The notes below the pieces were generated by a model. It saw only the letters and a list, made by a program, of their open reading frames with translations, was not told the DNA's origin and ran no database searches. 13,911 bases of DNA from the IMG/VR virus record IMGVR_UViG_2609459774_000004. The stretch is one strand, 5' to 3'. Shown piece by piece: positions 1-13,911 of the stretch (position 1 is its first letter; each line of letters starts with the position of its first letter). This DNA is from a virus (Duplodnaviria > Heunggongvirae > Uroviricota > Caudoviricetes). The translations under genes and the position numbers were made by a program.

Positions 1-19
1 CTATTTGATAAATATTAAA

Positions 20-1315
20 TTAATTTTTCATTGCTTCGTTATGGGGCATGGTTGGGGCAAACTCGCTTAACTGTGTATTTAACAAAGCTACCTGTGCATT
101 ATTGTTTTCAGACATCCATTTTCCGTATACCTGAAATACCATTTGCGCATCTGCATGGCCCATCTGGTTTGCTATAAATGCCGGGTTAGCACCAGCTGTC
201 AGCGACCAGCAGGCATAAGTATGTCTCGACTGATATGATTTTCGATGGCGGAGTCCGGCACGTTTTATCGCTGCGTCCCACATCTGCCTTATTGAGTCAA
301 CGGTAAAATGGTCACCATAATTTTTTACTCTCGCTGACACTTCAGGTTGAAAAACAAAGGTGCATTTTTGTTTTTCTGTTCTGCCATACTCTCTGAGGTG
401 AACATCAATGATATGCTCTTTGCTCAGTCTCGTTAATGTCATCTGACTCCGGAGAGCGTCGATTGCTGGCTTAATAAGATGAATGACCCGATTGGTTCCC
501 GCCTGTGTTTTTGGTACCGTGAAACGGTCTTTTGCTAAATTTCTCCTGATCATCATTGTTCCATTTTTCAGATCTATGTCCTCCCATCCAAGTGCACACA
601 GCTCACCAGGGCGAACTCCAGTATAAACAGAAACACACCATAAATTTTTTGCTTGCTGATTTCTGCACGCATCGATAAGACGGATAAATTCTTCCCGCGA
701 AAGAGGATCCGGAATGGTTCTTGATTCCTTTAATGGCGAGATCCCCTTAAACGGATTATCTGCCAGGTAACCGTTATCAACACCAAACTGGAACACGGCG
801 TTAAGATTTGTCATGTAATTATTTACAGTTACAGCCGATCTCCCTGGTTGTGTAACAATATAGTTACTTTTGGGGATCTGGTATCCAGTCAGTAACTCTT
901 TACGAACCTCCAGTAATTTTTCTTTATTAATCGATGAGGCAAGATTTTTTTCACCGATTATGCTCAGGATATTTTTGATGACGGCACGGTATGTGTTGAG
1001 TGATGTTTTGGCGACTTCAGTTTCTTTCAGTGCCAGAAATTTTTCAGCCAGTTCTTTTATGGTTAAATCTTGTCGGGCCTCACCAAATTTTTCCAGATTG
1101 CGTGAGGAGGGAAACTGTTTTGCATAGTCGAAAACACCAGTTTTTATTGCGTAACAAACAGAGGAGCGTAGTTCACCTGCAACGCGCCTGTTTTTTGCTG
1201 TGTCAGGAACCCCCAGATTTTCCCTGACTCTTACGTCTTTATAAACAAACCAGATACGTAATTTCCCTCCATGGTTTTCCACGCCTGTCGGATATTTCAT
1301 TTCAACTTCTCTCAT
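20..1315 (-). CDS. Tyrosine-type phage integrase (site-specific recombinase), 431 aa
   Basis: Long minus-strand ORF from the track. C-terminal region carries the tyrosine-recombinase catalytic pattern (HRKSYQSRHTY with H-x-x-R, downstream Tyr in QVYGKW). Sits at the prophage end next to an excisionase-like gene. The second Met (MKYPTG, start near 1300) is an alternative start. Confidence 0.9.
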   Translation of the reverse strand: MREVEMKYPTGVENHGGKLRIWFVYKDVRVRENLGVPDTAKNRRVAGELRSSVCYAIKTGVFDYAKQFPSSRNLEKFGEARQDLTIKELAEKFLALKETEVAKTSLNTYRAVIKNILSIIGEKNLASSINKEKLLEVRKELLTGYQIPKSNYIVTQPGRSAVTVNNYMTNLNAVFQFGVDNGYLADNPFKGISPLKESRTIPDPLSREEFIRLIDACRNQQAKNLWCVSVYTGVRPGELCALGWEDIDLKNGTMMIRRNLAKDRFTVPKTQAGTNRVIHLIKPAIDALRSQMTLTRLSKEHIIDVHLREYGRTEKQKCTFVFQPEVSARVKNYGDHFTVDSIRQMWDAAIKRAGLRHRKSYQSRHTYACWSLTAGANPAFIANQMGHADAQMVFQVYGKWMSENNNAQVALLNTQLSEFAPTMPHNEAMKN

Positions 1316-1334
1316 TAGTTAGTGTGGCTTTTAG

Positions 1335-1586
1335 TCAAGTAAGATGACGTCTTGGTCTCGCTGATGCCTGGCGCTCAATCCAGCGATCAATTTCTTCCAG
1401 GTTGTAAAAGCATGGACTGTTATCCCATGGCATACCGTCATGAGCGACATGCTTATATTCCCTTCCTTCCATAAACGATTTTTCCCGGGCCTTTTTTAAC
1501 GTACCTTTTTTTATTCCTTTCAGCGCAATTAACTGCTCTTCGGATACCCATTTGCCGGGAGAGACAATCATGATTACTTCGCTCAT
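1335..1586 (-). CDS. Excisionase-like small DNA-binding protein (83 aa)
   Basis: Small basic ORF immediately upstream of and co-oriented with the integrase (19-nt gap), the classic xis-int arrangement. Function inferred from position and size only. Confidence 0.55.
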   Translation of the reverse strand: MSEVIMIVSPGKWVSEEQLIALKGIKKGTLKKAREKSFMEGREYKHVAHDGMPWDNSPCFYNLEEIDRWIERQASARPRRHLT

Positions 1587-1658
1587 CGATTTCTTTATCT
1601 CTTACATCAGACGAGCGCCGGTTGCAGAATACCAGTCACAACCGGCGACAGTTGAACA

Positions 1659-4130
1659 TTAAGAATCAGCCTGACTCGGGATCAGTTTTTGCCAGATAAC
1701 TGAAACGTATTTTGCCTGGTAACGGGCGTCATCAAGTGCATTATGGCGCTCACCTTCGAATGGAATAGCCGTTCTGGCATCGAAGTCTATGGCTTTCCCC
1801 AGCTCAACGATTGTGCGTACATCGCGATCGTTGTAGTAACGCCACGGGCAGGGGATCCCCTGCCGTTCGTATGAACGGCGCAAAATCGTGTTGTCGAAGT
1901 TGGCTCCATTTCCCCAAACCTGAACAAAAAATTCACCGGAGTTTTCGTCGATAAATTCTCGCAATTGTAACAGTGCATCATCTAACGGGATTTCATCGGT
2001 CATAATGGCAGATTGCGCTTCGCGTGATTGCTTAAGCCACCATTTAATGGTGTCCCGATCAATGACTCCGCCAGCAGTTTCCAGATCGATAGTCTTACTA
2101 AATTCCGGTCCCATATCTCCGGTTTGCGGATCGAAAAATATTGCACCTATTGAGATGATCGGGGCATCAGGATTTTTTCCCATGGTTTCAAGGTCGATCA
2201 TTAGATGGTCACACGTCCTGCTGGTGGATGTGATTTCGTGATGACCGTTCACCTTAATTGGGTGATCTGCCGTCTCGCCAGTTTCATTATCGCTATTGTG
2301 ATGCTGATTGCCGCCAGTGTTCTCCTTGTGTGGATGTTCAGCGCCTTCCATTTCCTCCGGATCATCTTCCTGAACTTCAACCTGATACTCTTCATCGAAT
2401 GTTTCTTGGTATGTTGCGTCGCCCATCACCGCGCCACAATCAGGGCAGTTGCCGCCGCCGGTCTGACCGCAGGCGGTGCAGACTTTTTCCACTTCCTGTT
2501 GCGCTACTGGTTCAGGCTGTTTCGTTTCTGGCTCGTTTTGTAACGCATTTGGACTGTTTTGTTCCGCTTTTTGGTAGTTCCGTTCCGATTCATGCTGGTT
2601 CTGGTTCACAGAATCGCGGGTCTGGAGCCCCTTAACCCATTTCGGATCATTCGGGTCACTAATCCCTTCAACAAATTCACCACGTGATGCAGCAAGCAAC
2701 TTATCGGCGTCAGGCTGGCTGATATTGGCTGCCTGCATAATTTTGTTTACTTCGTCAGCGGTAACTTTTATCGGCTCTGGTTGTTCTGAATCTTCAGCGG
2801 TATCTACATTTTGCGGTAAGCCCGTGTATGTGCCATTTTTTCGGGCAAAATATTCTTCTTTTGTGATTTCAGTGGCGCCAGCAGCCAGTGCCTTATCCAG
2901 ACCAGAGAGTTTGTTTGCGCGACCGTATTTTTCTCCGTCCTTATCTGCGAAGAGGAAATAGAACGGCCCCTCACGCTCTACAGATGGTTCAGCTTCCGGC
3001 GCGGTTTCATTTTTTGGGATATCAGATACCTCAGTTTCCACTGCATCAGTTTGTGTTTCTGATGACTGGAGAACATCAACAGTGCCCAGGTCTGTTTCTT
3101 CATTCTCAAACACGCCCTTTGTCGTCAGGTATTCGCAGATATATTTGTTCAGTGCTACGGGATCTTTGTGAATGTCGATCGGACGCTCACGGACAAGGCC
3201 AAAAATAGTTTGGCGGTCGTAGCGAAGGGCATCAGGCTGTTTGCGCATTGATGCCGAGATACGCTTCCAGTCTTCGCGGTCGTTGTCGATAACTTCTTTT
3301 TTTGCCCAGCGATGGATGCTGCCGTCAATGTTTCCGGCATCCACATCACTAGGCCAGAGAGCGTAGGCCAGTTCGTCATCCAGTGTTTTCCATGTCTGCT
3401 TGTATTCGCGATGAATGGCAGCAATGACCGGGCTGATTTTTCCTGTTGAATTTTCAGTGTACTGTTGATTGGCTCTGGCGCGGGCGAGATCAACAACAGA
3501 CGTGTATTTTCCGGTTTCCTTGCGTTCACCTTCGCGACGTTTTTTCCAGATGCGCATCTCTGCCTGAATTTCGGGCCATTTAGCACCAGGAATACATTTA
3601 TGCTTAACCCACCCAATGGCGTGCAACTTAAGCTCCGGATACATGGCGTTAACTTCTGGCATTTTCATCAACGCTTCAACGATATGTCCGTCGAATGTTG
3701 CCATGTCTTCCTGCAACAATTCCTGTGCGCTAATAACCATATCAACGGTGATGTTTTCACATGTGTCGAACTTAACCATGACAGCGTTCTGTACTTCAGG
3801 GGCCAGCTTGTCAAAAGTGACGTTCATCGGATCGGATTCAGTCTCAACCGGGACAAAAGAAGCAGACTCCTCATCCCAGCGGTTTTCCTGCATATATTCA
3901 GCATCCCATGAATCGAGGGCAGGGCGGGGTATGCCAGGTTTATCCTCGCAGACAATAAATTTATAAGCGCAGTCCTGAGCAGCCGGATAATGTTCCAGGA
4001 ATTGCCAGTGAAATTTTGCTCGAGCACGGCGTTCGTCGCCAGCTTCAATGGCTGTGGCTACAGCCACAGCGCCTTCTTCCCTTGTTGCCAGTTCGTCAGG
4101 AATAGCGGCGCAAATAAAGACTTTACTCAT
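1659..4130 (-). CDS. Exonuclease VIII-like protein with C-terminal DEDDh (DnaQ-like) 3'-5' exonuclease domain; 823 aa from the ATG at 4130 (frame open to TTG at 4166)
   Basis: Track ORF 1659..4166. The ATG at 4128-4130 (MSKVF) has a GAGG Shine-Dalgarno 9 nt upstream. The C-terminus shows three DEDDh motifs (LMIDLETMG; VWGNGANFDNTIL; HNALDDARYQAKY). The centre has a CxxC-x10-CxxC ribbon (CTACGQTGGGNCPDCG) flanked by acidic and His-rich low-complexity linkers. By position this corresponds to the gene that K-12 Qin retains only as the IS2-truncated ydfE remnant. Confidence 0.8.
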   Translation of the reverse strand: MSKVFICAAIPDELATREEGAVAVATAIEAGDERRARAKFHWQFLEHYPAAQDCAYKFIVCEDKPGIPRPALDSWDAEYMQENRWDEESASFVPVETESDPMNVTFDKLAPEVQNAVMVKFDTCENITVDMVISAQELLQEDMATFDGHIVEALMKMPEVNAMYPELKLHAIGWVKHKCIPGAKWPEIQAEMRIWKKRREGERKETGKYTSVVDLARARANQQYTENSTGKISPVIAAIHREYKQTWKTLDDELAYALWPSDVDAGNIDGSIHRWAKKEVIDNDREDWKRISASMRKQPDALRYDRQTIFGLVRERPIDIHKDPVALNKYICEYLTTKGVFENEETDLGTVDVLQSSETQTDAVETEVSDIPKNETAPEAEPSVEREGPFYFLFADKDGEKYGRANKLSGLDKALAAGATEITKEEYFARKNGTYTGLPQNVDTAEDSEQPEPIKVTADEVNKIMQAANISQPDADKLLAASRGEFVEGISDPNDPKWVKGLQTRDSVNQNQHESERNYQKAEQNSPNALQNEPETKQPEPVAQQEVEKVCTACGQTGGGNCPDCGAVMGDATYQETFDEEYQVEVQEDDPEEMEGAEHPHKENTGGNQHHNSDNETGETADHPIKVNGHHEITSTSRTCDHLMIDLETMGKNPDAPIISIGAIFFDPQTGDMGPEFSKTIDLETAGGVIDRDTIKWWLKQSREAQSAIMTDEIPLDDALLQLREFIDENSGEFFVQVWGNGANFDNTILRRSYERQGIPCPWRYYNDRDVRTIVELGKAIDFDARTAIPFEGERHNALDDARYQAKYVSVIWQKLIPSQADS

Positions 4131-4222
4131 TTGTTTTAACCTCATGACAGATTTAAGGATGAACAAATCCCTGCCATTGCTGGCATATAAGAATGAAACC
4201 GGATATTTATTACGGAACTGTT

Positions 4223-4414
4223 TTAAAGACCTGCCGGGATTTCGATATTATCCTGGTGAATAACTTTATCGACCGGGTAACAGTTACCGGGAATTTTCTG
4301 TTCGGTTGCTGCAGTCATACACTCCTGCATTGTCCTGTGAACACTGACTGCAATATCAACTGGCTCTCCGGAAACAAGAAAAACTGTCAGAACAAGCACA
4401 AATGCTGAATTCAT
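4223..4414 (-). CDS. ydfD: YdfD-like small lysis protein with N-terminal hydrophobic (transmembrane/signal-like) segment, 63 aa
   Basis: Internal Met of track ORF 4223..4468 (MNSAFVLVLTVFLVSG...). Its ATG overlaps the dicB stop as ATGA, implying translational coupling. Length (63 aa), N-terminal hydrophobic helix and position directly downstream of dicB match Qin ydfD. Confidence 0.65.
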   Translation of the reverse strand: MNSAFVLVLTVFLVSGEPVDIAVSVHRTMQECMTAATEQKIPGNCYPVDKVIHQDNIEIPAGL

Positions 4415-4599
4415 TGTGCACATCCTTTTGGCATCAGACGTAAACGAGCCAGCATTGAAACAATGCATATTTTATTTAATAGCTCCCGTTCTTGTTTTCT
4501 CTTGTTAATGGCATCTTCAGTAAATACTGGGTTACTGATAGTGACACCAATTTCAAAACAACCTTCAGACGTATTAACGTTTGGTAATAACGTTTTCAT
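4411..4599 (-). CDS. dicB: DicB cell-division inhibitor (MinC-dependent), 62 aa
   Basis: Internal Met of track ORF 4411..4704: MKTLLPNVNTSEGCFEIGVTISNPVFTEDAINKRKQERELLNKICIVSMLARLRLMPKGCAQ. GAGGA Shine-Dalgarno 7 nt upstream. Length, sequence and position downstream of the DicF sequence fit DicB of the Qin dicB operon. Confidence 0.8.
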   Translation of the reverse strand: MKTLLPNVNTSEGCFEIGVTISNPVFTEDAINKRKQERELLNKICIVSMLARLRLMPKGCAQ

Positions 4600-4768
4600 T
4601 ATCGCGTCCTCAACAATGAATTTTGTGATGCAGTGCCTGGTGCCTCCAGGTGATGTTAACCAGTTAACAATTAACGCCGGATACAGAGAATCCACCCATA
4701 ACACTGTTTTTGGTTTTAACTGTTCCGCGTGCGCTCAGCCGCATTCACCACATCACAAAATTCACTTT

Positions 4769-4826
4769 AAAAAGGGCGGCAGAGCAGTCACGGAGTAAAA
4801 CTGATACCGCCAAACGTCACCAGAAA
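4769..4826 (-). ncRNA. dicF: DicF small regulatory RNA (53-nt body 4774..4826 plus U-tail)
   Basis: Minus-strand sequence UUUCUGGUGACGUUUGGCGGUAUCAGUUUUACUCCGUGACUGCUCUGCCGCCC followed by UUUUU matches DicF as I recall it, including a GC-rich 3' hairpin and U-tract. Located between ydfC and dicB as in Qin. Confidence 0.75.
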
Positions 4827-5166: not shown

Positions 5167-5385
5167 CTAACGCGGGTATGTAATCATTCTGGCAATGCTT
5201 AATGCCGCTGCTTTTTCCAGATTGGTGATATCCTGCTCCAGAGCGGACAGATTTTCAGCCTGCTTAGCCCTGGCTTCATTAGCCCATTTCAGATCCTGCG
5301 CTGCATTAATTTTCTGGCGCATCCACTCATAAAGTTCATCATCGGTATAGTCTGGCGCGATGATGACGGGTTCTCGTTTCTGCAT
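5167..5385 (-). CDS. ydfC: YdfC-like small protein, 72 aa
   Basis: Track ORF with AGGA Shine-Dalgarno 6 nt upstream of the ATG. Length and position (third gene of the leftward operon after ydfA/ydfB) match Qin ydfC. Function unknown. Confidence 0.6.
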   Translation of the reverse strand: MQKREPVIIAPDYTDDELYEWMRQKINAAQDLKWANEARAKQAENLSALEQDITNLEKAAALSIARMITYPR

Positions 5386-5414: not shown

Positions 5415-5543
5415 TCAGCCGTTAGATTTTGCCGAACTGGAAAGCGCGTGTTTAAACTCACTGAAGCTGAGAGCTTCTTCGCCTTCGGCAAGGCCTTCGA
5501 AGTATTCTTCGTAAGCCTTTTCCATGATTGTGTCGAAATCCAT
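5415..5543 (-). CDS. ydfB: YdfB-like small acidic protein, 42 aa (below the ORF-track size cutoff)
   Basis: Hand-translated: MDFDTIMEKAYEEYFEGLAEGEEALSFSEFKHALSSSAKSNG. GGTGA Shine-Dalgarno about 5 nt upstream of the ATG, which sits 2 nt after the ydfA stop. The 42-aa length matches Qin ydfB. It competes with the overlapping basic track ORF 5339..5548. Confidence 0.5.
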   Translation of the reverse strand: MDFDTIMEKAYEEYFEGLAEGEEALSFSEFKHALSSSAKSNG

Positions 5544-5544
5544 A

Positions 5545-5700
5545 TCACTCACCTGAGTTTCTTTCCAGCCAGCGACGGGCACCATTTTCGGTTTTAAACG
5601 TTTTGCTTTTGGTATACGTCATTGCGGTGAACGTGCCGTCCTGGTTTGGAAACACGCCGTACACCAGAGATTCGTTGTTGCCAAGATCGATAGTATCCAT
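5545..5700 (-). CDS. ydfA: YdfA-like small protein, 51 aa
   Basis: Internal Met of track ORF 5545..5754 (MDTIDLGNNESLVYGVF...) with AGGT 5 nt upstream. First gene downstream of the pL-like promoter. Length 51 aa matches Qin ydfA. Confidence 0.6.
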   Translation of the reverse strand: MDTIDLGNNESLVYGVFPNQDGTFTAMTYTKSKTFKTENGARRWLERNSGE

Positions 5701-5777
5701 GCTGACCTCATTTCCCCTTAACGCCGGGGTAGCGGAACTGTTTGCTGAGAACACCGTGCGGTGTCTTGATGGAAAGT

Positions 5778-5833
5778 AATTTAGAATAACCTAACATGAT
5801 AGGCAAGTGTTTTTTGTTAGATTGGTCTAACAA
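5778..5833 (-). promoter_or_regulatory. Leftward early promoter candidate with two operator-like palindromes (OL)
   Basis: Minus-strand -35 TTGCCT (5801-5806) and -10 TAAATT (5778-5783) with 17-nt spacer. Perfect palindrome TTGTTAGA-ttgg-TCTAACAA at 5814-5833. Second site TTAGGTTATTCTAA (minus-strand reading of 5781-5794) repeats the 6277-6292 site at OR. Confidence 0.4.
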
Positions 5834-5868
5834 AAAGAGTGGGCGCAACTAATCACTTGAAAAGAATG

Positions 5869-6276
5869 TTATTTTATTGATTTATTTTTACGCGCTTTAA
5901 GCATTTCTTCGAAGAGTTTGTTGAAGTTTTCTACTCTTGCGCGCATTTCAGACAGCAAGGCTTCCTGCTCGGAAGATGGAAGAGCATCGAATAATTCGAT
6001 CAATTCTTTGTGGTTGGGAGTTAGCTCTGTTTCCACATGAAGTTCTTGTGCAGGCACTGGTGCCTTGTCTTCGTCACCAAACATTAGCCATGTAGGTGAG
6101 CACTTCAGAGCATCCGCTAAAGCAAACAATCGTTTTCCGACTGGCTGGGTTTCGTCTCTTTCCCATTGTGAAATTGTGACGTGAGCAACTCCAGCGAGGC
6201 GCGCAGCTTCTCGTTGTGTTAAGCGTAATTCTTTTCGTCGCGCCAGAACTCGCTGGCCTAGGGTTCTTGTATCCAT
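5869..6276 (-). CDS. dicA: DicA-type HTH (XRE family) prophage repressor, 135 aa, no S24 peptidase domain
   Basis: N-terminal HTH (LRLTQREAARLAGVAHVTISQWE). Divergent from a Cro-like gene across a 77-bp operator region. The 135-aa length matches DicA. C-terminal half is a short helical tail with no LexA-like Ser/Lys cleavage module. Confidence 0.85.
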   Translation of the reverse strand: MDTRTLGQRVLARRKELRLTQREAARLAGVAHVTISQWERDETQPVGKRLFALADALKCSPTWLMFGDEDKAPVPAQELHVETELTPNHKELIELFDALPSSEQEALLSEMRARVENFNKLFEEMLKARKNKSIK

Positions 6277-6353
6277 AGTTAGGTAATTCTAATTTTTCTT
6301 GACTTAGGTATCCCGCGCACAATAATGTTAGAAAAGTCTAACAAGAGGGGGCT
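6277..6353. promoter_or_regulatory. Divergent promoter/operator region between dicA and dicC (OR)
   Basis: Rightward -35 TTGACT (6299-6304), 17-nt spacer, -10 ATAATG (6322-6327). Palindrome TGTTAGA-aaag-TCTAACA at 6326-6343 overlaps the -10/+1. Second site AGTTAGGTAATTCTAA at 6277-6292 abuts the dicA start. Confidence 0.5.
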
Positions 6354-6356
6354 TTG

Positions 6357-6584
6357 ATGCTTAAAGTTGACGCAATTACTTTTTTTGGCAGCAAAACAAA
6401 GCTTGCCAATGCCGCAGGGGTGAGACTGGCAAGTGTTGCTGCTTGGGGGATACTGGTTCCTGAAGGTCGCGCGATGCGTCTACAGGAGGCATCTGGCGGG
6501 GAGCTTCAGTATGATCCCAAAGTTTATGATGAATATCGTAAGACGAAGCGGGCGGGGCGGTTGAACAATGAAAATCACTCCTGA
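6357..6584 (+). CDS. dicC: DicC / Cro-like (YdaS-family) small DNA-binding protein
   Basis: Track ORF 6354..6584 (76 aa from TTG). The ATG at 6357 has GAGGGGG 6 nt upstream. Protein MLKVDAITFFGSKTKLANAAGVRLASVAAWG... has a Cro/YdaS-like HTH pattern and is divergent from the repressor. Confidence 0.75.
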   Translation: MLKVDAITFFGSKTKLANAAGVRLASVAAWGILVPEGRAMRLQEASGGELQYDPKVYDEYRKTKRAGRLNNENHS

Positions 6585-6885
6585 ACAGGCTCGTGAGGCT
6601 CTGGATGCCTGGATATGTCGACCAGGAATGACACAGGAGCAGGCGACGATATTAATCACTGAAGCATTCTGGGCTTTGAAAGAGCGCCCGAACATCGATG
6701 TTCAGCGTGTCACATATGAAGGTGGCGCGATTGATCAGCGAGCGCTTGGCGTTAATCGAGTGAAGATATTTGAACGCTGGAAGGCTATCGACACCAGGGA
6801 TAAGCGTGAAAAGTTCACGGCGCTAGTGCCTGCAATTATGGAGGCTACAGATTATTCCTTACCTCGTGAGTTTTGCCTTTGCTGA
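6568..6885 (+). CDS. YdaT-like (CII-analog family) protein, 105 aa, probably C-terminally truncated
   Basis: Overlaps the dicC 3' end. Shares the ...ERWKAIDTRDKREKF..LVPAIMEA...LPRE pattern I recall from Rac YdaT (about 140 aa). Ends early and overlaps the next ORF by 20 nt in another frame. Confidence 0.55.
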   Translation: MKITPEQAREALDAWICRPGMTQEQATILITEAFWALKERPNIDVQRVTYEGGAIDQRALGVNRVKIFERWKAIDTRDKREKFTALVPAIMEATDYSLPREFCLC

Positions 6886-7333
6886 TTACTCCAGGTCTGC
6901 GGCAAGTAAGGCTCGCTGTGAGCATTGTTCAGGTACGGGATTTTATAATGTATTGCGCGAAGTGGTGAAACACTACAGACGCGGGGAATCTGTAATCAAG
7001 GAAGAATGGGTGAAGGAACTATGTCAGCATTGCCATGGTAAGGGCGAAGCCAGCACAGCGTGCAGAGGGTGTAAGGGTAAAGGGATTGTTCTGGATGAAA
7101 AAAGAACCCGGTTTCATGGCGTACCGGTATATAAGATTTGTGGGCGTTGTAATGGAAACCGGTTTAGTCGTTTACCGACCACGCTGGCACGACGTCATGT
7201 CCAGAAGCTGGTACCAGACCTGACCGATTATCAGTGGTATAAGGGGTATGCGGACGTCATTGGTAAACTGGTAACAAAGTGCTGGCAGGAAGAAGCATAC
7301 GCGGAAGCGCAATTGAGGAAGGTGACGAGATAA
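6866..7333 (+). CDS. Cys-rich zinc-finger ORF (four CxxCxGxG/R DnaJ-like repeats), 155 aa; possibly the 3' remnant of a Q-like late antiterminator
   Basis: Repeats CEHCSGTG, CQHCHGKG, CRGCKGKG, CGRCNGNR. Only a GTG start with no Shine-Dalgarno and no internal ATG; upstream in-frame stop at 6824-6826. It occupies the position of quuQ relative to cspF/cspB/essQ in Qin. Could equally be annotated as a pseudogene. Confidence 0.4.
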   Translation: MSFAFADYSRSAASKARCEHCSGTGFYNVLREVVKHYRRGESVIKEEWVKELCQHCHGKGEASTACRGCKGKGIVLDEKRTRFHGVPVYKICGRCNGNRFSRLPTTLARRHVQKLVPDLTDYQWYKGYADVIGKLVTKCWQEEAYAEAQLRKVTR

Positions 7334-7754: not shown

Positions 7755-7967
7755 TCATGAAAGGTAAACATTGGCAGCTGAAGGGCCACGCAGACCATTT
7801 ATCCGGCAAAATTCCACGCGTAATCCGGTGGTAATTTCTTCTGCATCGCGGAGATTGAGCGCTGAAACATGAAGCTGGACATCGATACGACCATCGGATG
7901 GGGTGATAAGACCCTTGCCGCTTTTGCCGTCAAAGGTTTTGACAATTCCTGTCATTTTACGGGACAA
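7755..7967 (-). CDS. cspF: Cold-shock-domain protein, CspF/CspH subfamily, 70 aa
   Basis: [27 protein letters not shown]...[20 protein letters not shown] matches the CspF/CspH pattern I recall. Divergent from a cspB-like gene as in Qin. cspF versus cspH cannot be resolved by eye. Confidence 0.85.
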
Positions 7968-8267
7968 AAAAATTCCTTAATACTGATAACTTGGCGCACT
8001 ATACACACGTTCCTGAAGAAAGCTATAGTTTTTTGATGGGGTTGAAGATGGCTGGATGTCTAAAATAAACATTGCTTCATATGTTCAACTATGCGTTAAT
8101 GATTGCGTCGGTTTGAAGAACAGACGATATACGAAGTAGTTTACTAAAGCAGTTCTCATTTCAGGTGTTATTCACTTATTCCTTCTTTGAGTCTCTCCAA
8201 TTAAGTACGAAGTCGTTTCTGTTATGCAAACCATTTATGCCGAAAGGCTCAAGTTAAGGAATGTAGA
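7968..8267. promoter_or_regulatory. Divergent promoter and long 5'-UTR region between the cspF-like and cspB-like genes
   Basis: 300-bp AT-rich intergenic region between divergent cold-shock genes; cspA-family genes typically have long 5' leaders. No specific element mapped. Confidence 0.35.
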
Positions 8268-8483
8268 ATGTCAAATAAAATGACTGGTTTAGTAAAATGG
8301 TTTAACGCTGATAAAGGTTTCGGCTTTATTTCTCCTGTTGATGGTAGTAAAGATGTGTTTGTGCATTTTTCTGCGATTCAGAATGATAATTATCGAACCT
8401 TATTTGAAGGTCAAAAGGTTACCTTCTCTATAGAGAGTGGTGCTAAAGGTCCTGCAGCAGCAAATGTCATCATTACTGATTAA
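8268..8483 (+). CDS. cspB: Cold-shock protein CspB-like, 71 aa
   Basis: [67 protein letters not shown]... carries the RNP1/RNP2 motifs of the CspA family and the CspB-type variable residues. AAGGAA Shine-Dalgarno upstream. Confidence 0.9.
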
Positions 8484-8764
8484 AATTCATCGCTCGTCTG
8501 TATACGATAACGAAGAAGGCTGATGCCTGAGTAGAGATACGGACAGAGTAGTGAATATTGGATCTCTTTAATAAAAAGTAAGGAGGTCCAATACATGAAA
8601 CAATGGCTAGCATATTTGGCAAAATCTTAATCAGGAAAAGTATGCTAACCATTGTGGTGAAGTGCAGGTTTGCTGCATGAATAGTTTTACAGCAGAAGCT
8701 AACTGCTGGCATGGCAAAACAAAGTGCGTAAGTGGATGACTCCCACAAAAAGCACCACAATCTC

Positions 8765-9017: not shown

Positions 9018-9236
9018 AGGCTTTTCCTGTATAAATGGCCGTATACAGTACACTAAATATGAAAACATTTCTCGTATTATTATTTTATATATGACTTTCT
9101 TTCAAAATAATTACCCACATTTTTAATGTGTATGTTTTTTTAGCGCCGTTGAGAACAACGTGTGCTGTCAAAACTACCCCGTAGACTCCGATCTTTTCAA
9201 ACATATTGCACCATCCGTGTACATCGGGGTGAGGAT

Positions 9237-9452
9237 ATGAAATCAATGGATAAGTTAACAACAGGTGTTGCCTATGGCACATCGGCGGGTAATGCTGGTT
9301 TCTGGGCATTGCAGTTACTCGATAAAGTAACTCCGTCACAGTGGGCTGCAATCGGTGTGCTGGGTAGCCTGGTTTTTGGCCTGCTGACGTATCTGACAAA
9401 TCTTTATTTCAAGATTAAAGAAGACAGGCGTAAGGCTGCGAGAGGAGAGTAA
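9237..9452 (+). CDS. essQ: Class II holin (S21-type pinholin) with dual-start motif MKSM, 71 aa
   Basis: Internal Met of track ORF 9162..9452 with GAGGA Shine-Dalgarno. [29 protein letters not shown]...[13 protein letters not shown] resembles EssD/EssQ and phage 21 S. Met1 and Met4 give the antiholin/holin dual start. Symbol assigned by synteny. Confidence 0.85.
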
Positions 9453-9456
9453 TCCA

Positions 9457-9764
9457 ATGACTCAAGACTATGAACTGGTTGTGAAAGGAGTCCGTAATTT
9501 TGAGAATAAAGTTACGGTAACTGTAGCCTTACAGGACAAAGAACGCTTTGACGGTGAAATTTTTGACCTGGATGTCGCCATGGACCGTGTTGAAGGAGCT
9601 GCGCTGGAGTTTTATGAGGCAGCAGCCAGAAGGAGCGTCCGGCAAGTCTTCCTGGAAGTAGCAGAAAAATTGTCAGAAAAAGTTGAGTCTTATCTGCAGC
9701 ATCAATACTCCTTTAAGATTGAAAATCCTGCCAATAAGCACGAGCGTCCTCATCATAAATATCT

Positions 9765-9768
<4 letters not shown>
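9457..9768 (+). CDS. ydfR: YdfR-like protein (DUF1327-type), 103 aa, inside the lysis cassette
   Basis: AGGAGAG Shine-Dalgarno. 103 aa between holin and endolysin, as ydfR is in Qin. Its stop overlaps the endolysin start (ATGA). Confidence 0.75.
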
Positions 9769-10792
<1,024 letters not shown>

Positions 10793-11155
10793 GGTAATAT
10801 TAAATCGGAACATTTACATCGCGGAATGTAAAATTTAAATAAAAAGGACTCTTCCATGAGCCAAAATTCCTGAAATCTTAAGGGTAAGATAAAAGGTCTT
10901 AATCAGAATGACACGTTTTATTAATAAATAAAGCTATTCTTTCATTGCTGTGTTTTTCTTTACAAAAGTAATCCTTGCTATGGGTGGTTAATCATGAGTT
11001 AATGGTGTTCTGGTTTGTTACAAATTTATCTGAAGCAGTCATTGTTATAATTTTATTATTTGTACCTCTTGAGATTTCCTTGTTGGTTTTTCTCTCTGAT
11101 ATTTTTTTTTCGGACCATTCTGCCCAAGGGCTAATTTCTTCAAAAGGTAATAATT

Positions 11156-11368
11156 ATGTCTAACAAAATGACTGGTTTAGTGAAATGGTTTAACCCTGAA
11201 AAAGGTTTTGGTTTCATCACGCCGAAAGATGGCAGCAAAGATGTGTTTGTCCATTTCTCAGCAATTCAGAGCAACGATTTCAAAACATTAACTGAGAATC
11301 AGGAAGTTGAATTTGGTATTGAGAACGGACCTAAAGGTCCTGCCGCTGTTCATGTAGTGGCGCTTTGA
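11156..11368 (+). CDS. cspI: Cold-shock protein CspI, 70 aa
   Basis: [70 protein letters not shown] matches CspI of Qin as I recall it. Long AT-rich 5' leader upstream. Confidence 0.9.
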
Positions 11369-11567
11369 GGTAGACAATATTACAAACCATATTCACTTTA
11401 GATGCCCGTGTTGTCATGGTTCCCAGTATAGAACATCATCTTTTGATGTTTCTGACATGAATCCTTTCGGGGCAAAATGTATCTTTTGTAAATCAATGAT
11501 GATTACATTTGATAATATTTCACAATACTTAAATGTTAGCCATCTGTCGTTAGATTTAAGAAAGTGA
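11358..11567 (+). other. Candidate second small zinc-ribbon ORF (paralog of the 8847..9017 protein) with no canonical start upstream of its Cys motifs
   Basis: Hand-translated frame: ...HFRCPCCHGSQYRTSSFDVSDMNPFGAKCIFCKSMMITFDNISQYLNVSHLSLDLRK*. Cys spacing (C-x-CC ... C-x2-C, with SF in the linker) parallels the 56-aa protein. The only ATG is at 11457, after the first Cys cluster. The stop is 8 nt before the terminator hairpin. May be a degenerate paralog or use a non-canonical start. Confidence 0.25.
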
Positions 11568-13105: not shown

Positions 13106-13348
13106 GGCTAGTTTTTGCATTTCCATGGCGGCGGCAGCATGTTTGGTAATTTATTGATAATTAAAAGTTATTTATCTTTTCACCTGTACAATATTTTTTT
13201 CTCCCTGTCATTAGACCAGTTTACAATTAATTGAAATATATAAATAAACATGATTTTTAGACTGGCCCCCTGAATCTCCAGACAACCAGTATCACTTAAA
13301 TAAGTGATAGTCTTAATACTAGTTTTTAGACTAGTCATTGGAGAACAG

Positions 13349-13714
13349 ATGATTGATGTCTTAGGGCCGGAGAAACGCAGACGGCGTACCACACAGGAAA
13401 AGATCGCAATTGTTCAGCAGAGCTTTGAACCGGGGATGACGGTCTCCCTCGTTGCCCGGCAACATGGTGTAGCAGCCAGCCAGTTATTTCTCTGGCGTAA
13501 GCAATACCAGGAAGGAAGTCTTACTGCTGTCGCCGCCGGAGAACAGGTTGTTCCTGCCTCTGAACTTGCTGCCGCCATGAAGCAGATTAAAGAACTCCAG
13601 CGCCTGCTCGGCAAGAAAACGATGGAAAATGAACTCCTCAAAGAAGCCGTTGAATATGGACGGGCAAAAAAGTGGATAGCGCACGCGCCCTTATTGCCCG
13701 GGGATGGGGAGTAA
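13349..13714 (+). CDS. insC: IS2 transposase OrfA (InsC), 121 aa
   Basis: Internal ATG of track ORF 13304..13714. [56 protein letters not shown]... is the IS2 InsC HTH protein. Confidence 0.9.
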
Positions 13715-13911
13715 GCTTAGTCAGCCGTTGTCTCCGGGTGTCGCGTGCGCAGTTGCACGTCATTCTCAGACGAACCGATGACTGGATGGATGGCCGCCGC
13801 AGTCGTCACACTGATGATACGGATGTGCTTCTCCGTATACACCATGTTATCGGAGAGCTGCCCACGTATGGTTATCGTCGGGTATGGGCGCTGCTTCGCA
13901 GACAGGCAGAA
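13666..13911 (+). CDS. insD: IS2 transposase OrfB (InsD), N-terminal part in the -1 frame, truncated by the window end
   Basis: Slippery heptamer A-AAA-AAG at 13666-13672 near the end of insC. The -1 frame reads [82 protein letters not shown] to the last base of the window. Confidence 0.75.

Follow-up and report, generated by a model that had tools for sequence, protein, structure and literature searches.

Lambda Kil and the KilR protein of the Rac prophage are early-left division inhibitors that are encoded in a PL-type operon between the immunity region and the genes for recombination and integration, and their action results in filamentation of the host cell. An analogy to lambda was also drawn for the dicBF locus (PMC10448788). 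At this locus, the repressor DicA acts on the promoter dicBp and a single transcript spans ydfABC-dicFB-ydfD (PMC10448788). According to the literature, derepression of dicBp is brought about by the Rem antirepressor, by urea and by heat, and it also takes place spontaneously. It was shown that DicB is a binding partner of MinC and via ZipA targets MinC to the septal ring, which results in filamentation of the cells (PMC6832061). Moreover, DicB blocks the ManYZ-dependent DNA entry of lambda-type phages, resulting in an approximately 100-fold resistance for which MinC is required (PMC6832061).

For the second gene of the pair, ectopic production of YdfD was shown to result in rapid lysis; YdfD binds to and is proposed to inhibit the cytoplasmic IspG of the MEP pathway, and overexpression of ispG abolishes the lysis (PMC8835842). 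YdfD was purified as a soluble fusion and binds to IspG through its residues 1-28 (PMC8835842). The IspG mechanism rests on one paper, which does not contain enzyme kinetics (PMC8835842). Furthermore, co-expression of either DicB or SulA was reported to prevent lysis by YdfD (Masuda, 2016, as cited in PMC8835842).

Here, we describe a dicB-ydfD pair in a stretch of 13,911 nucleotides of tailed-phage DNA (IMG/VR record IMGVR_UViG_2609459774_000004), the whole of which is referred to as the window in the following.

Identity of the gene pair

Both genes of the pair are encoded on the minus strand of the window. The coding sequence of the cell-division inhibitor gene dicB (4411..4599) comprises 62 codons followed by TGA and translates to MKTLLPNVNTSEGCFEIGVTISNPVFTEDAINKRKQERELLNKICIVSMLARLRLMPKGCAQ, and the coding sequence of the lysis protein gene ydfD (4223..4414), a member of the family DUF1482, comprises 63 codons followed by TAA and translates to MNSAFVLVLTVFLVSGEPVDIAVSVHRTMQECMTAATEQKIPGNCYPVDKVIHQDNIEIPAGL. 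A first-pass annotation made from the sequence alone had identified the two reading frames as DicB and YdfD and had placed them at 4223-4599, which are the coordinates that exactly enclose both of them. It had proposed a pairwise comparison with the K-12 proteins as a check, and the outcome of this comparison is identity: over 421 nt (4200-4620) the DNA is 100% identical to dicB (b1575) and ydfD (b1576) of E. coli K-12 MG1655, and this identity extends to the ATGA overlap and to the ribosome-binding site of each gene. In MG1655, b1576 is annotated as 'lysis protein'.

The family models were passed as well. DicB matches Pfam PF05358 over residues 1-62 of 62 (136.8 bits, cut-off 27; 1.9e-40), NCBIfam NF049927 (132.8 bits, cut-off 100) and, over its full length, phrog_1251, and YdfD matches the Pfam family DUF1482 (PF07358; 91.1 bits, cut-off 25; 3.9e-26) and, also over its full length, phrog_1092 (6.8e-36). 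In RefSeq the matching segment carries the names 'cell division inhibition protein DicB' and 'lysis protein YdfD' or DUF1482. We therefore regard it as close to certain, with a probability of roughly 0.93, that the two genes are dicB and ydfD, that they belong to a lambdoid prophage of the Qin type and that their DNA is the same as in E. coli K-12. These genes are already known and the pair as such is nothing new.

The dicB frame is open further upstream up to a GTG at 4704, corresponding to 97 amino acids. The accepted DicB product is the 62-amino acid form, which fits the title of Cam et al. and the ATG of which, at 4599, is preceded at a distance of 7 nt by the Shine-Dalgarno sequence GAGGA (4607..4611, minus strand). 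For YdfD, the form of 63 amino acids is the one annotated in K-12 and the one studied by experiment (PMC8835842). When the PDB was searched by sequence with DicB as well as a YdfD profile, no match at E <= 1 was obtained, and neither of the proteins was matched by the PADLOC models. Two open reading frames on the plus strand (4193-4408 and 4463-4798) were treated as shadows of the minus-strand genes, because it is the latter that show family matches and purifying selection.

Distribution, selection and role of the pair

Of 5426 complete E. coli genomes, 4200 contain the 377-bp dicB-ydfD segment, and a single genome may have as many as six copies of it. The discovery value of the pair is small, as its genes are identical to the textbook genes of K-12 and occur in about three quarters of the complete E. 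coli genomes. For the comparison of alleles, 91 DicB-like loci were collected from annotated phage and E. coli records, species-representative genomes and viral contigs. The DicB scan of the species-representative genomes, which relies on exact peptide words so that distant relatives would escape, returned E. coli, Shigella flexneri, E. ruysiae and E. albertii as well as a single contig that bears the label of a Veillonella MAG, probably through mis-binning. The scan of viral contigs revealed almost only near-identical copies, and the diversity stems from the PPompW prophages (L003), from E. albertii (L009 and L011) and from a few metagenome contigs. Most divergent are the copies of the PPompW prophages (61% identity for DicB and 48% for YdfD, with a GTGA overlap) and the E. 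albertii copy L011. A search for YdfD homologues resulted in 226 clusters; among the 120 listed, all belong to DUF1482 and every source name is Escherichia or Shigella.

Compared to the window, the dN/dS values are 0.10-0.46 for dicB (equal-length divergent alleles L003, L009, L011 and L035) and 0.10-0.23 for ydfD (equal-length alleles L008, L009, L035 and L045, with the length variants L003 and L011 left out), which argues that both are selected and constrained coding genes.

Concerning the role of DicB, division inhibition and exclusion had been ascribed to this module beforehand, and both are documented for DicB in the literature; MinC-dependent filamentation is known for K-12 DicB, which is the identical protein (PMC6832061). 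By the mechanism described in the literature, DicB would bring MinC to the septal ring via ZipA, the FtsZ rings would disassemble and the cells would filament, and the same interaction with MinC would close the ManYZ inner-membrane route for the DNA injection of lambda-like phages. The pair might also mainly serve the lytic growth of the phage itself by an early arrest of host division, as for lambda Kil and Rac KilR, and not the defense or benefit of the host. In complete phage genome records the location of the pair is unchanged, with the immunity region on one side and exo-xis-int on the other, and the pair is expressed only on derepression (PMC10448788), both of which fit such a role. On the other hand, DicB confers the approximately 100-fold resistance against lambda through ManYZ (PMC6832061), the module is kept in the defective prophages of most E. 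coli genomes, and in most of the fetched copies the DicB protein is the same as in the window, the common alleles differing synonymously only. We consider a predominant role in lytic growth a serious candidate with somewhat less than even chances. It is compatible with the best explanation of the locus, i.e., a dicB-ydfD pair of a Qin-type prophage.

The junction between dicB and ydfD

The two genes share four bases on the minus strand (4411..4414), in which the ATG of ydfD (4414-4412) and the TGA of dicB (4413-4411) form the ATGA overlap that had been claimed for this pair and that is read directly in the sequence. A putative Shine-Dalgarno sequence of ydfD, AAGGA (4423..4427, minus strand), is located 8 nt before the ATG and within the dicB codons Lys58-Gly59. 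Overlaps of the ATGA type are very common in bacterial operons. At this junction the overlap is more than chance, since an NTGA overlap with a DUF1482-like open reading frame is kept in all 91 of the dicB loci examined (ATGA, or GTGA in PPompW), including alleles with only about 60% identity in DicB and about 45-48% in YdfD. Moreover, the GGA core of the Shine-Dalgarno sequence is found 8 nt before the start codon in 12 of 12 distinct junction sequences, the divergent alleles L003, L009 and L011 included. This GGA is the codon of Gly59, a residue that, like few others, does not vary within the generally variable tail of DicB.

This geometry of an NTGA overlap with an in-frame GGA core, together with its conservation, makes translational coupling of ydfD to dicB plausible. 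The overlap and the Shine-Dalgarno sequence within the last dicB codons would most likely let ribosomes that terminate on dicB start on ydfD, and under such coupling YdfD would rarely be made without its antagonist DicB. With the Shine-Dalgarno sequence that ydfD itself possesses, independent initiation would be feasible as well.

The overlap might alternatively reflect genome compaction only, in which case the translation of ydfD would begin independently at the Shine-Dalgarno sequence of this gene, at a level unlinked to the translation of dicB. The 8-nt distance of AAGGA to the ATG is a good spacing for this, and the general frequency of ATGA overlaps in operons as well as the lack of a significant and conserved local hairpin (see below) point in the same direction. 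Against compaction stand the retention of the overlap in all 91 loci, including alleles in which the flanking codons have diverged (GTGA in PPompW), and a Shine-Dalgarno core that coincides with the one invariant codon, Gly59 GGA, in a variable tail. Compaction without any link between the two genes appears less likely than not. The pattern fits selection acting on the junction and would be compatible with independent initiation as well.

In the minimum-energy RNA fold of the junction, the Shine-Dalgarno sequence and the AUG of ydfD are paired. This hairpin does not exceed shuffled sequence in strength (z = -1.03) and is missing from the folds of the most divergent alleles L009 and L011, and it was rejected as evidence for coupling. 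The strictly conserved overlap with its embedded Shine-Dalgarno sequence might be of interest to specialists, as it offers a simple test of whether the synthesis of YdfD is tied to that of DicB.

The N-terminus of YdfD and the mode of lysis

YdfD had been described in the first-pass annotation as a membrane-acting lysis protein with an N-terminal hydrophobic helix. Residues 4-14 (AFVLVLTVFLV) are indeed hydrophobic with a mean Kyte-Doolittle hydropathy of 3.17, so that the hydrophobic stretch stands. The hydrophobic core comprises 11 residues; it is not preceded by a basic residue, and Ser-Gly-Glu-Pro comes directly after it. The helix found no confirmation: in an AlphaFold2 model, residues 4-12 are predicted to form a beta-strand that pairs with residues 18-26 (block pLDDT 81-90), followed by a helix (29-38) and a further strand (44-48). 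The model, with a mean pLDDT of 77.7, is only suggestive, because it was built on a shallow alignment of 29 closely related family members. A Foldseek search of the model against the PDB revealed nothing at E <= 0.001, the best E-value being 1.7. For YdfD, no holin or membrane-protein family was found in Pfam (DUF1482 only), in PHROGs (the unannotated phrog_1092 only) or in PADLOC. YdfD thus has neither a match to a family of holins or other membrane-acting proteins in these three collections nor a hydrophobic segment of bilayer length, and its predicted fold, which is not decisive taken alone, speaks neither for a holin nor for a transmembrane helix of the classical type.

It was nevertheless considered that YdfD might be inserted into the membrane by its N-terminus as a transmembrane helix and might lyse the cell in a holin-like or membrane-disrupting manner. 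The strongly hydrophobic residues 4-14 would suit this, as would the rapid lysis that is the phenotype of YdfD (PMC8835842). Against membrane insertion, the 11-residue core preceding Ser-Gly-Glu-Pro is short for a helix spanning the bilayer and is predicted as a paired beta-strand, and the family matches are restricted to DUF1482 and an unannotated phrog. Also in favor of insertion, the N-terminus was reportedly described by Masuda in 2016 as a membrane anchor. Lysis by YdfD needs ongoing cell division, unlike the action of a holin. Furthermore, the lysis was reported to disappear upon overexpression of ispG, and a soluble YdfD fusion binds to IspG through residues 1-28 (PMC8835842). Taken together, membrane insertion is improbable, and the description as membrane-acting was not upheld, as the published target is the cytoplasmic IspG (PMC8835842), a holin family match is absent from Pfam, PHROGs and PADLOC and the hydrophobic core is limited to 11 residues. 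By the model in the literature, YdfD would instead lyse dividing cells by binding to IspG and thereby starving them of the isoprenoid carrier lipid for wall synthesis. The published views on the N-terminus are in conflict, i.e., membrane anchor or IspG-binding domain, which might be of interest to specialists.

The pair had also been regarded as a host-cell-killing module. Division inhibition and exclusion are documented for DicB, and lysis as well as its rescue by ispG or by DicB was reported for a YdfD identical to the one encoded here (PMC8835842). The two proteins do not add up to simple additive killing, because DicB was reported to suppress the lysis by YdfD. DicB and YdfD are hence partly antagonistic and not a two-hit killing module.

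Going further, the pair may be translated in an antidote-toxin-like manner, in which YdfD is made only from ribosomes that have just finished DicB, so that lysis would be masked as long as DicB holds division and would be released upon loss of DicB or resumption of division, and in cells that carry the prophage the pair would act as an abortive or delayed-lysis switch; at the same time, the N-terminus of YdfD may contribute a beta-strand to a fold that is small and soluble, and not a membrane anchor. Taken jointly, these two proposals are speculative and we regard them as a long shot. A soluble N-terminal fold, if true, would raise anew the question of the way in which YdfD gets to its target.

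The dicBF operon and its control

The genes dicB and ydfD are the fifth and the sixth element of the dicBF early-left operon consisting of ydfA, ydfB, ydfC, the small RNA DicF, dicB and ydfD. All elements are encoded on the minus strand. ydfA (DUF1391; 5545..5700), the first gene of the operon, matches Pfam PF07151 (4.1e-28), and its 51-amino acid start was taken from the K-12 annotation. ydfB (5415..5543) is nearly identical to K-12 in its 42-amino acid form, with a putative start codon chosen from the K-12 annotation, and ydfC (5167..5385) is likewise nearly identical to K-12, matches phrog_1744 and is annotated as ydfC in L001 and L002. The DicF small RNA with its terminator stem (4774..4825) matches Rfam RF00039 over model positions 1-52 of 52 with 76.7 bits (gathering score 48) and lies upstream of dicB on the same transcript; transcripts would have to pass its terminator to reach dicB. 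Compared to K-12, there are about six differences in roughly 1660 nt (about 99.6% identity) over the region that begins shortly upstream of ydfA and reaches the exonuclease start, and MG1655 shows the same one-strand order of ydfA-ydfB-ydfC-DicF-dicB-ydfD, likewise downstream of its repressor gene.

The operon would be transcribed from a promoter approximately 1.2 kb upstream of the pair that is flanked by DicA-type operators and is located just downstream of a DicA-family repressor gene, an arrangement that would be the counterpart of lambda cI/PL. A putative dicBp (5778..5806, minus strand) consists of a -35 element TTGCCT (5806-5801), a 17-nt spacer and a -10 element TAAATT (5783-5778), and its position matches that of K-12 dicBp between dicA and ydfA (PMC10448788). 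The consensus promoter scan did not flag this site at 5778-5806. Two DicA-type operators of the form TGTTAG-N6-CTAACA (within 5779..5832) flank or overlap the putative promoter, of which that at 5815-5832 is perfect and that at 5779-5796 has 2 mismatches. The K-12 operators show the same layout at equivalent positions (L001, 10592-10609 and 10557-10574). Further inverted repeats of this type are found at 6326-6343 (perfect match) and at 6277-6294 (three mismatches), and K-12 carries counterparts of these sites, too. An operator search with a spacing of 7 nt found nothing, the correct spacing being 6 nt.

The repressor (5869..6276, minus strand; 135 amino acids) is a mosaic allele that matches NCBIfam NF007257 'transcriptional repressor DicA' with 224.7 bits (cut-off 101) and Pfam HTH_3 and is 57% identical to K-12 DicA. 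The Cro-like protein encoded on the plus strand (6354-6584) is 86% identical to DicC, and the region of immunity as such has a mosaic composition. The putative promoter is thus accompanied by DicA-type operators and by a repressor of the DicA family. The claim of an early-left operon under DicA repression holds for the dicBF operon, the repressor family and the operators, with the correction that the repressor is a 57%-identical allele and not K-12 DicA. Because of this divergence, it is the conserved operator half-sites that make repression of the operon by this allele a reasonable expectation. Furthermore, the route of induction may differ from that in K-12, since the element lacks the K-12 antirepressor gene rem as a result of a deletion.

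Between ydfD and the exonuclease gene lies a weak terminator-like hairpin (4172..4185, minus strand), TGCCAGCAATGGCA then GGGATTTGTT, with 5 pairs of which 3 are GC. It is identical in K-12. The terminator scan returned 6 sites in the region compared to 2.8 +/- 1.8 in shuffles, and the consensus scans for promoters and terminators performed at or near chance level; the hairpin may be a chance occurrence.

The left arm and the state of the element

Next to the pair, an exonuclease gene (ydfE in K-12; 1659..4130, minus strand) starts at 4130, 92 nt downstream of ydfD, which agrees with the adjacency noted earlier. It encodes a full-length protein of 823 amino acids with a Pfam Rv2179c-like 3'-5' exonuclease domain at the C-terminus (2.5e-67), matches phrog_2082 over residues 1-822 of 823 and is identical to the protein of phage Tritos at 815 of 823 positions with no gaps or stops. 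The excisionase (1335..1586, minus strand; 83 amino acids; Pfam DUF1233 putative excisionase, 1.6e-31) is identical at 83 of 83 positions to phage Tritos and strain TKEC21-59, and the tyrosine integrase (20..1300, minus strand; 426 amino acids; Pfam Arm-DNA-bind_2 and Phage_integrase) is intact and identical at 424 of 426 positions to the full-length gene of TKEC21-59. The integrase, excisionase and exonuclease genes are thus intact, as had been stated, with full lengths of 426, 83 and 823 amino acids and without stops. In the Qin prophage of K-12, IS2 is inserted inside intQ and the counterpart of 1180-3363 is missing, a loss of 2.2 kb comprising the N-terminus of the integrase, xis and the C-terminus of the exonuclease; the parts of the left arm that K-12 has in common with the window are 100% identical. 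An intact left arm is the common state and not unusual: of the 5426 complete E. coli genomes, 2257 cover positions 1-4700 to at least 80%, and the best-matching strains among those listed are 100% identical over these positions.

On the other side the element is defective. At 6843-6848, ydfX' is joined to ydfT at 262 nt into ydfT, and this ydfX'-ydfT' fusion deletion removes the K-12 segment with ydfW, flxA, ydfV, relBE, hokD, rem and ydfU. Of the Q-type antiterminator a C-terminal fragment is all that remains, and an IS2 begins at 13257. A holin, lysozyme and spanin cassette is found at 9162-10792, and because of this separate cassette YdfD is not the main lysis device of the phage. As a whole, the element is a Qin-type prophage that is defective on the side opposite to the left arm. 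The suggestion that it is less decayed than K-12 Qin is hence correct for the left arm only, while right of the immunity region more has been lost than in K-12. The value for annotation is that the left arm (int, xis, exonuclease, ydfD, dicB and DicF) represents the undamaged state of what K-12 carries in a broken form.

Comparison with known systems

The closest system is the Qin prophage of K-12 MG1655, with which the window shares the DNA of the pair over 421 nt without a difference and, upstream, the same ydfA, ydfB, ydfC and DicF. The two differ in that K-12 has a ydfE cut after 256 codons, no xis and an intQ interrupted by IS2, whereas K-12 keeps rem, relBE, hokD and ydfU, which are lost here, and has a DicA with 57% identity to the repressor of the window. 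The Escherichia phages Tritos, PhiR42_1, HannyBb and mEp460, for which complete genome records are available, carry the pair with 95-100% identity in the same position and in the order int-xis-exo-ydfD-dicB-DicF-ydfCBA-repressor. These records also carry replication and late genes, in contrast to the element described here with its ydfX'-ydfT' deletion and the IS2 at 13257, and Tritos has another repressor/Cro pair.

More distant are the PPompW-type prophages of EHEC, which encode a DicB homologue of 62 amino acids and a DUF1482 homologue of 62 amino acids with a 4-nt overlap and the GGA core at the same distance. They differ from the window in the protein sequences (61% identity for DicB and 48% for YdfD), in the GTG start resulting in a GTGA overlap and in other neighboring small genes.

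Lambda Kil and Rac KilR are alike in their analogous map position and in the filamentation outcome, and no sequence relationship is claimed. In contrast to them, DicB acts through MinC and ZipA and not directly on FtsZ (PMC6832061).

Finally, YdfD resembles the single-gene lysis proteins E of phiX174 (acting on MraY), A2 of Qbeta (MurA) and LysM of phage M (MurJ) in being a small phage protein that causes division-dependent lysis by blocking the supply for the cell wall, and none of these proteins, including YdfD, is a holin-endolysin system (PMC8835842). It differs from them in that its proposed target IspG lies further upstream, in isoprenoid synthesis, and in that YdfD is encoded by a tailed temperate phage equipped with a separate cassette for holin, lysozyme and spanin.

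Possible attenuation and predicted fold of YdfD

The lysis gene ydfD (4223-4414, minus strand, 63 codons) varies in a different manner from the cell-division inhibitor gene dicB (4411-4599, minus strand, 62 codons). In four of the fetched loci encoding a DicB-like protein (L006, L031, L042 and L090), in which ydfD follows downstream of dicB at approximately position 3186, ydfD is shortened by a frameshift or nonsense mutation to 18, 59, 30 and 30 codons, respectively, and dicB is intact. Moreover, in closely related alleles the changes in ydfD compared to the window are mostly non-synonymous, whereas the common alleles of dicB show only synonymous differences from it. The presence of these cut-short copies together with this contrast in substitutions suggests, at the level of sequence comparison, that ydfD is under relaxed or attenuating selection in resident prophages.

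In the AlphaFold2 model of YdfD (4226-4414), the hydrophobic N-terminus, taken as a helix in the first-pass annotation, is predicted to form a β-strand in a small β-β-α-β fold, and a Foldseek search of this model against the PDB revealed no similar fold at E ≤ 0.001. Within the YdfD family Cys32 is invariant and Cys45 nearly so.

A dicB-ydfD pair is also present in L008 (JAGZPX010000007.1, 22.9 kb; DicB identity 95%), a contig assigned to a metagenome bin of Veillonella parvula. Most likely this is a misbinned contig of an Escherichia prophage.

The dicB-ydfD junction and the 3′ end of the operon

The codon for Gly59 of DicB (GGA, 4423-4425) is the sole invariant codon within the variable C-terminal tail of DicB. 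The same GGA also forms the core of the Shine-Dalgarno sequence of ydfD, and its distance to the ydfD start codon is constant in every allele. Further inside the dicB coding region, a palindromic hairpin is found at 4452-4466 (GCATTGAAACAATGC), which was flagged as terminator-like in the scan, with a T-rich run following the stem on the plus strand, and which constitutes the first stem of the predicted mRNA fold on the minus strand. This hairpin inside dicB is probably incidental.

A second, weak terminator-like hairpin followed by GGGATTTGTT is located on the minus strand between ydfD and the exonuclease gene (4172-4185). A ydfABC-dicFB-ydfD transcript of 1,608 nt was inferred previously (PMC10448788). 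If transcription from dicBp, the putative promoter between the repressor gene and ydfA, starts near 5771 as we infer, a transcript of this length would have its 3′ end at approximately 4164, just past this hairpin.

The exonuclease gene downstream of ydfD

For the 823-residue product of the exonuclease gene (1659-4130, minus strand), the only clear domain is a C-terminal, Rv2179c-like DEDDh 3′-5′ exonuclease domain, which covers residues 654-825 of the 835-residue TTG-start ORF that was scanned, corresponding to approximately residues 642-813 of the 823-residue protein. Since the score of the protein against the NCBIfam model of exonuclease VIII (RecE) is 281.6 bits, far below the cut-off of 1269 bits, an equivalence to RecE or to lambda Exo was ruled out.

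Rearrangements and the mosaic immunity region

At the deletion junction at 6843-6848 (region 6568-7333), a truncated ydfX is fused to ydfT, 262 nt into the latter. The deletion removes the K-12 segment comprising ydfW, flxA, ydfV, relBE, hokD, the DicA antirepressor gene rem and ydfU, and leaves the Q-antiterminator as a C-terminal ORF only. Its left breakpoint is the same point at which K-12 and strain TKEC21-59 part from each other. The late region is truncated by an IS2 element (13257-13911) that ends the window and is 99.7% identical to the IS2 copy in K-12 intQ. Two matches to the cspA-type thermoregulator leader (8107-8499, 158.8 bits; 11009-11395, 111.9 bits) overlie cspB and cspI, which are cold-shock genes of the prophage, and cspF (7755-7967) is located on the strand opposite to these matches.

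Finally, judged by its sequence, the immunity region (5779-6343) is a mosaic compared to K-12. Its repressor, of the DicA family, shares only 57% identity with K-12 DicA, and the Cro/DicC-like protein is 86% identical to its K-12 counterpart; despite this divergence of both proteins, the operator half-sites (TGTTAG-N6-CTAACA) and the way they are arranged are kept as in K-12.
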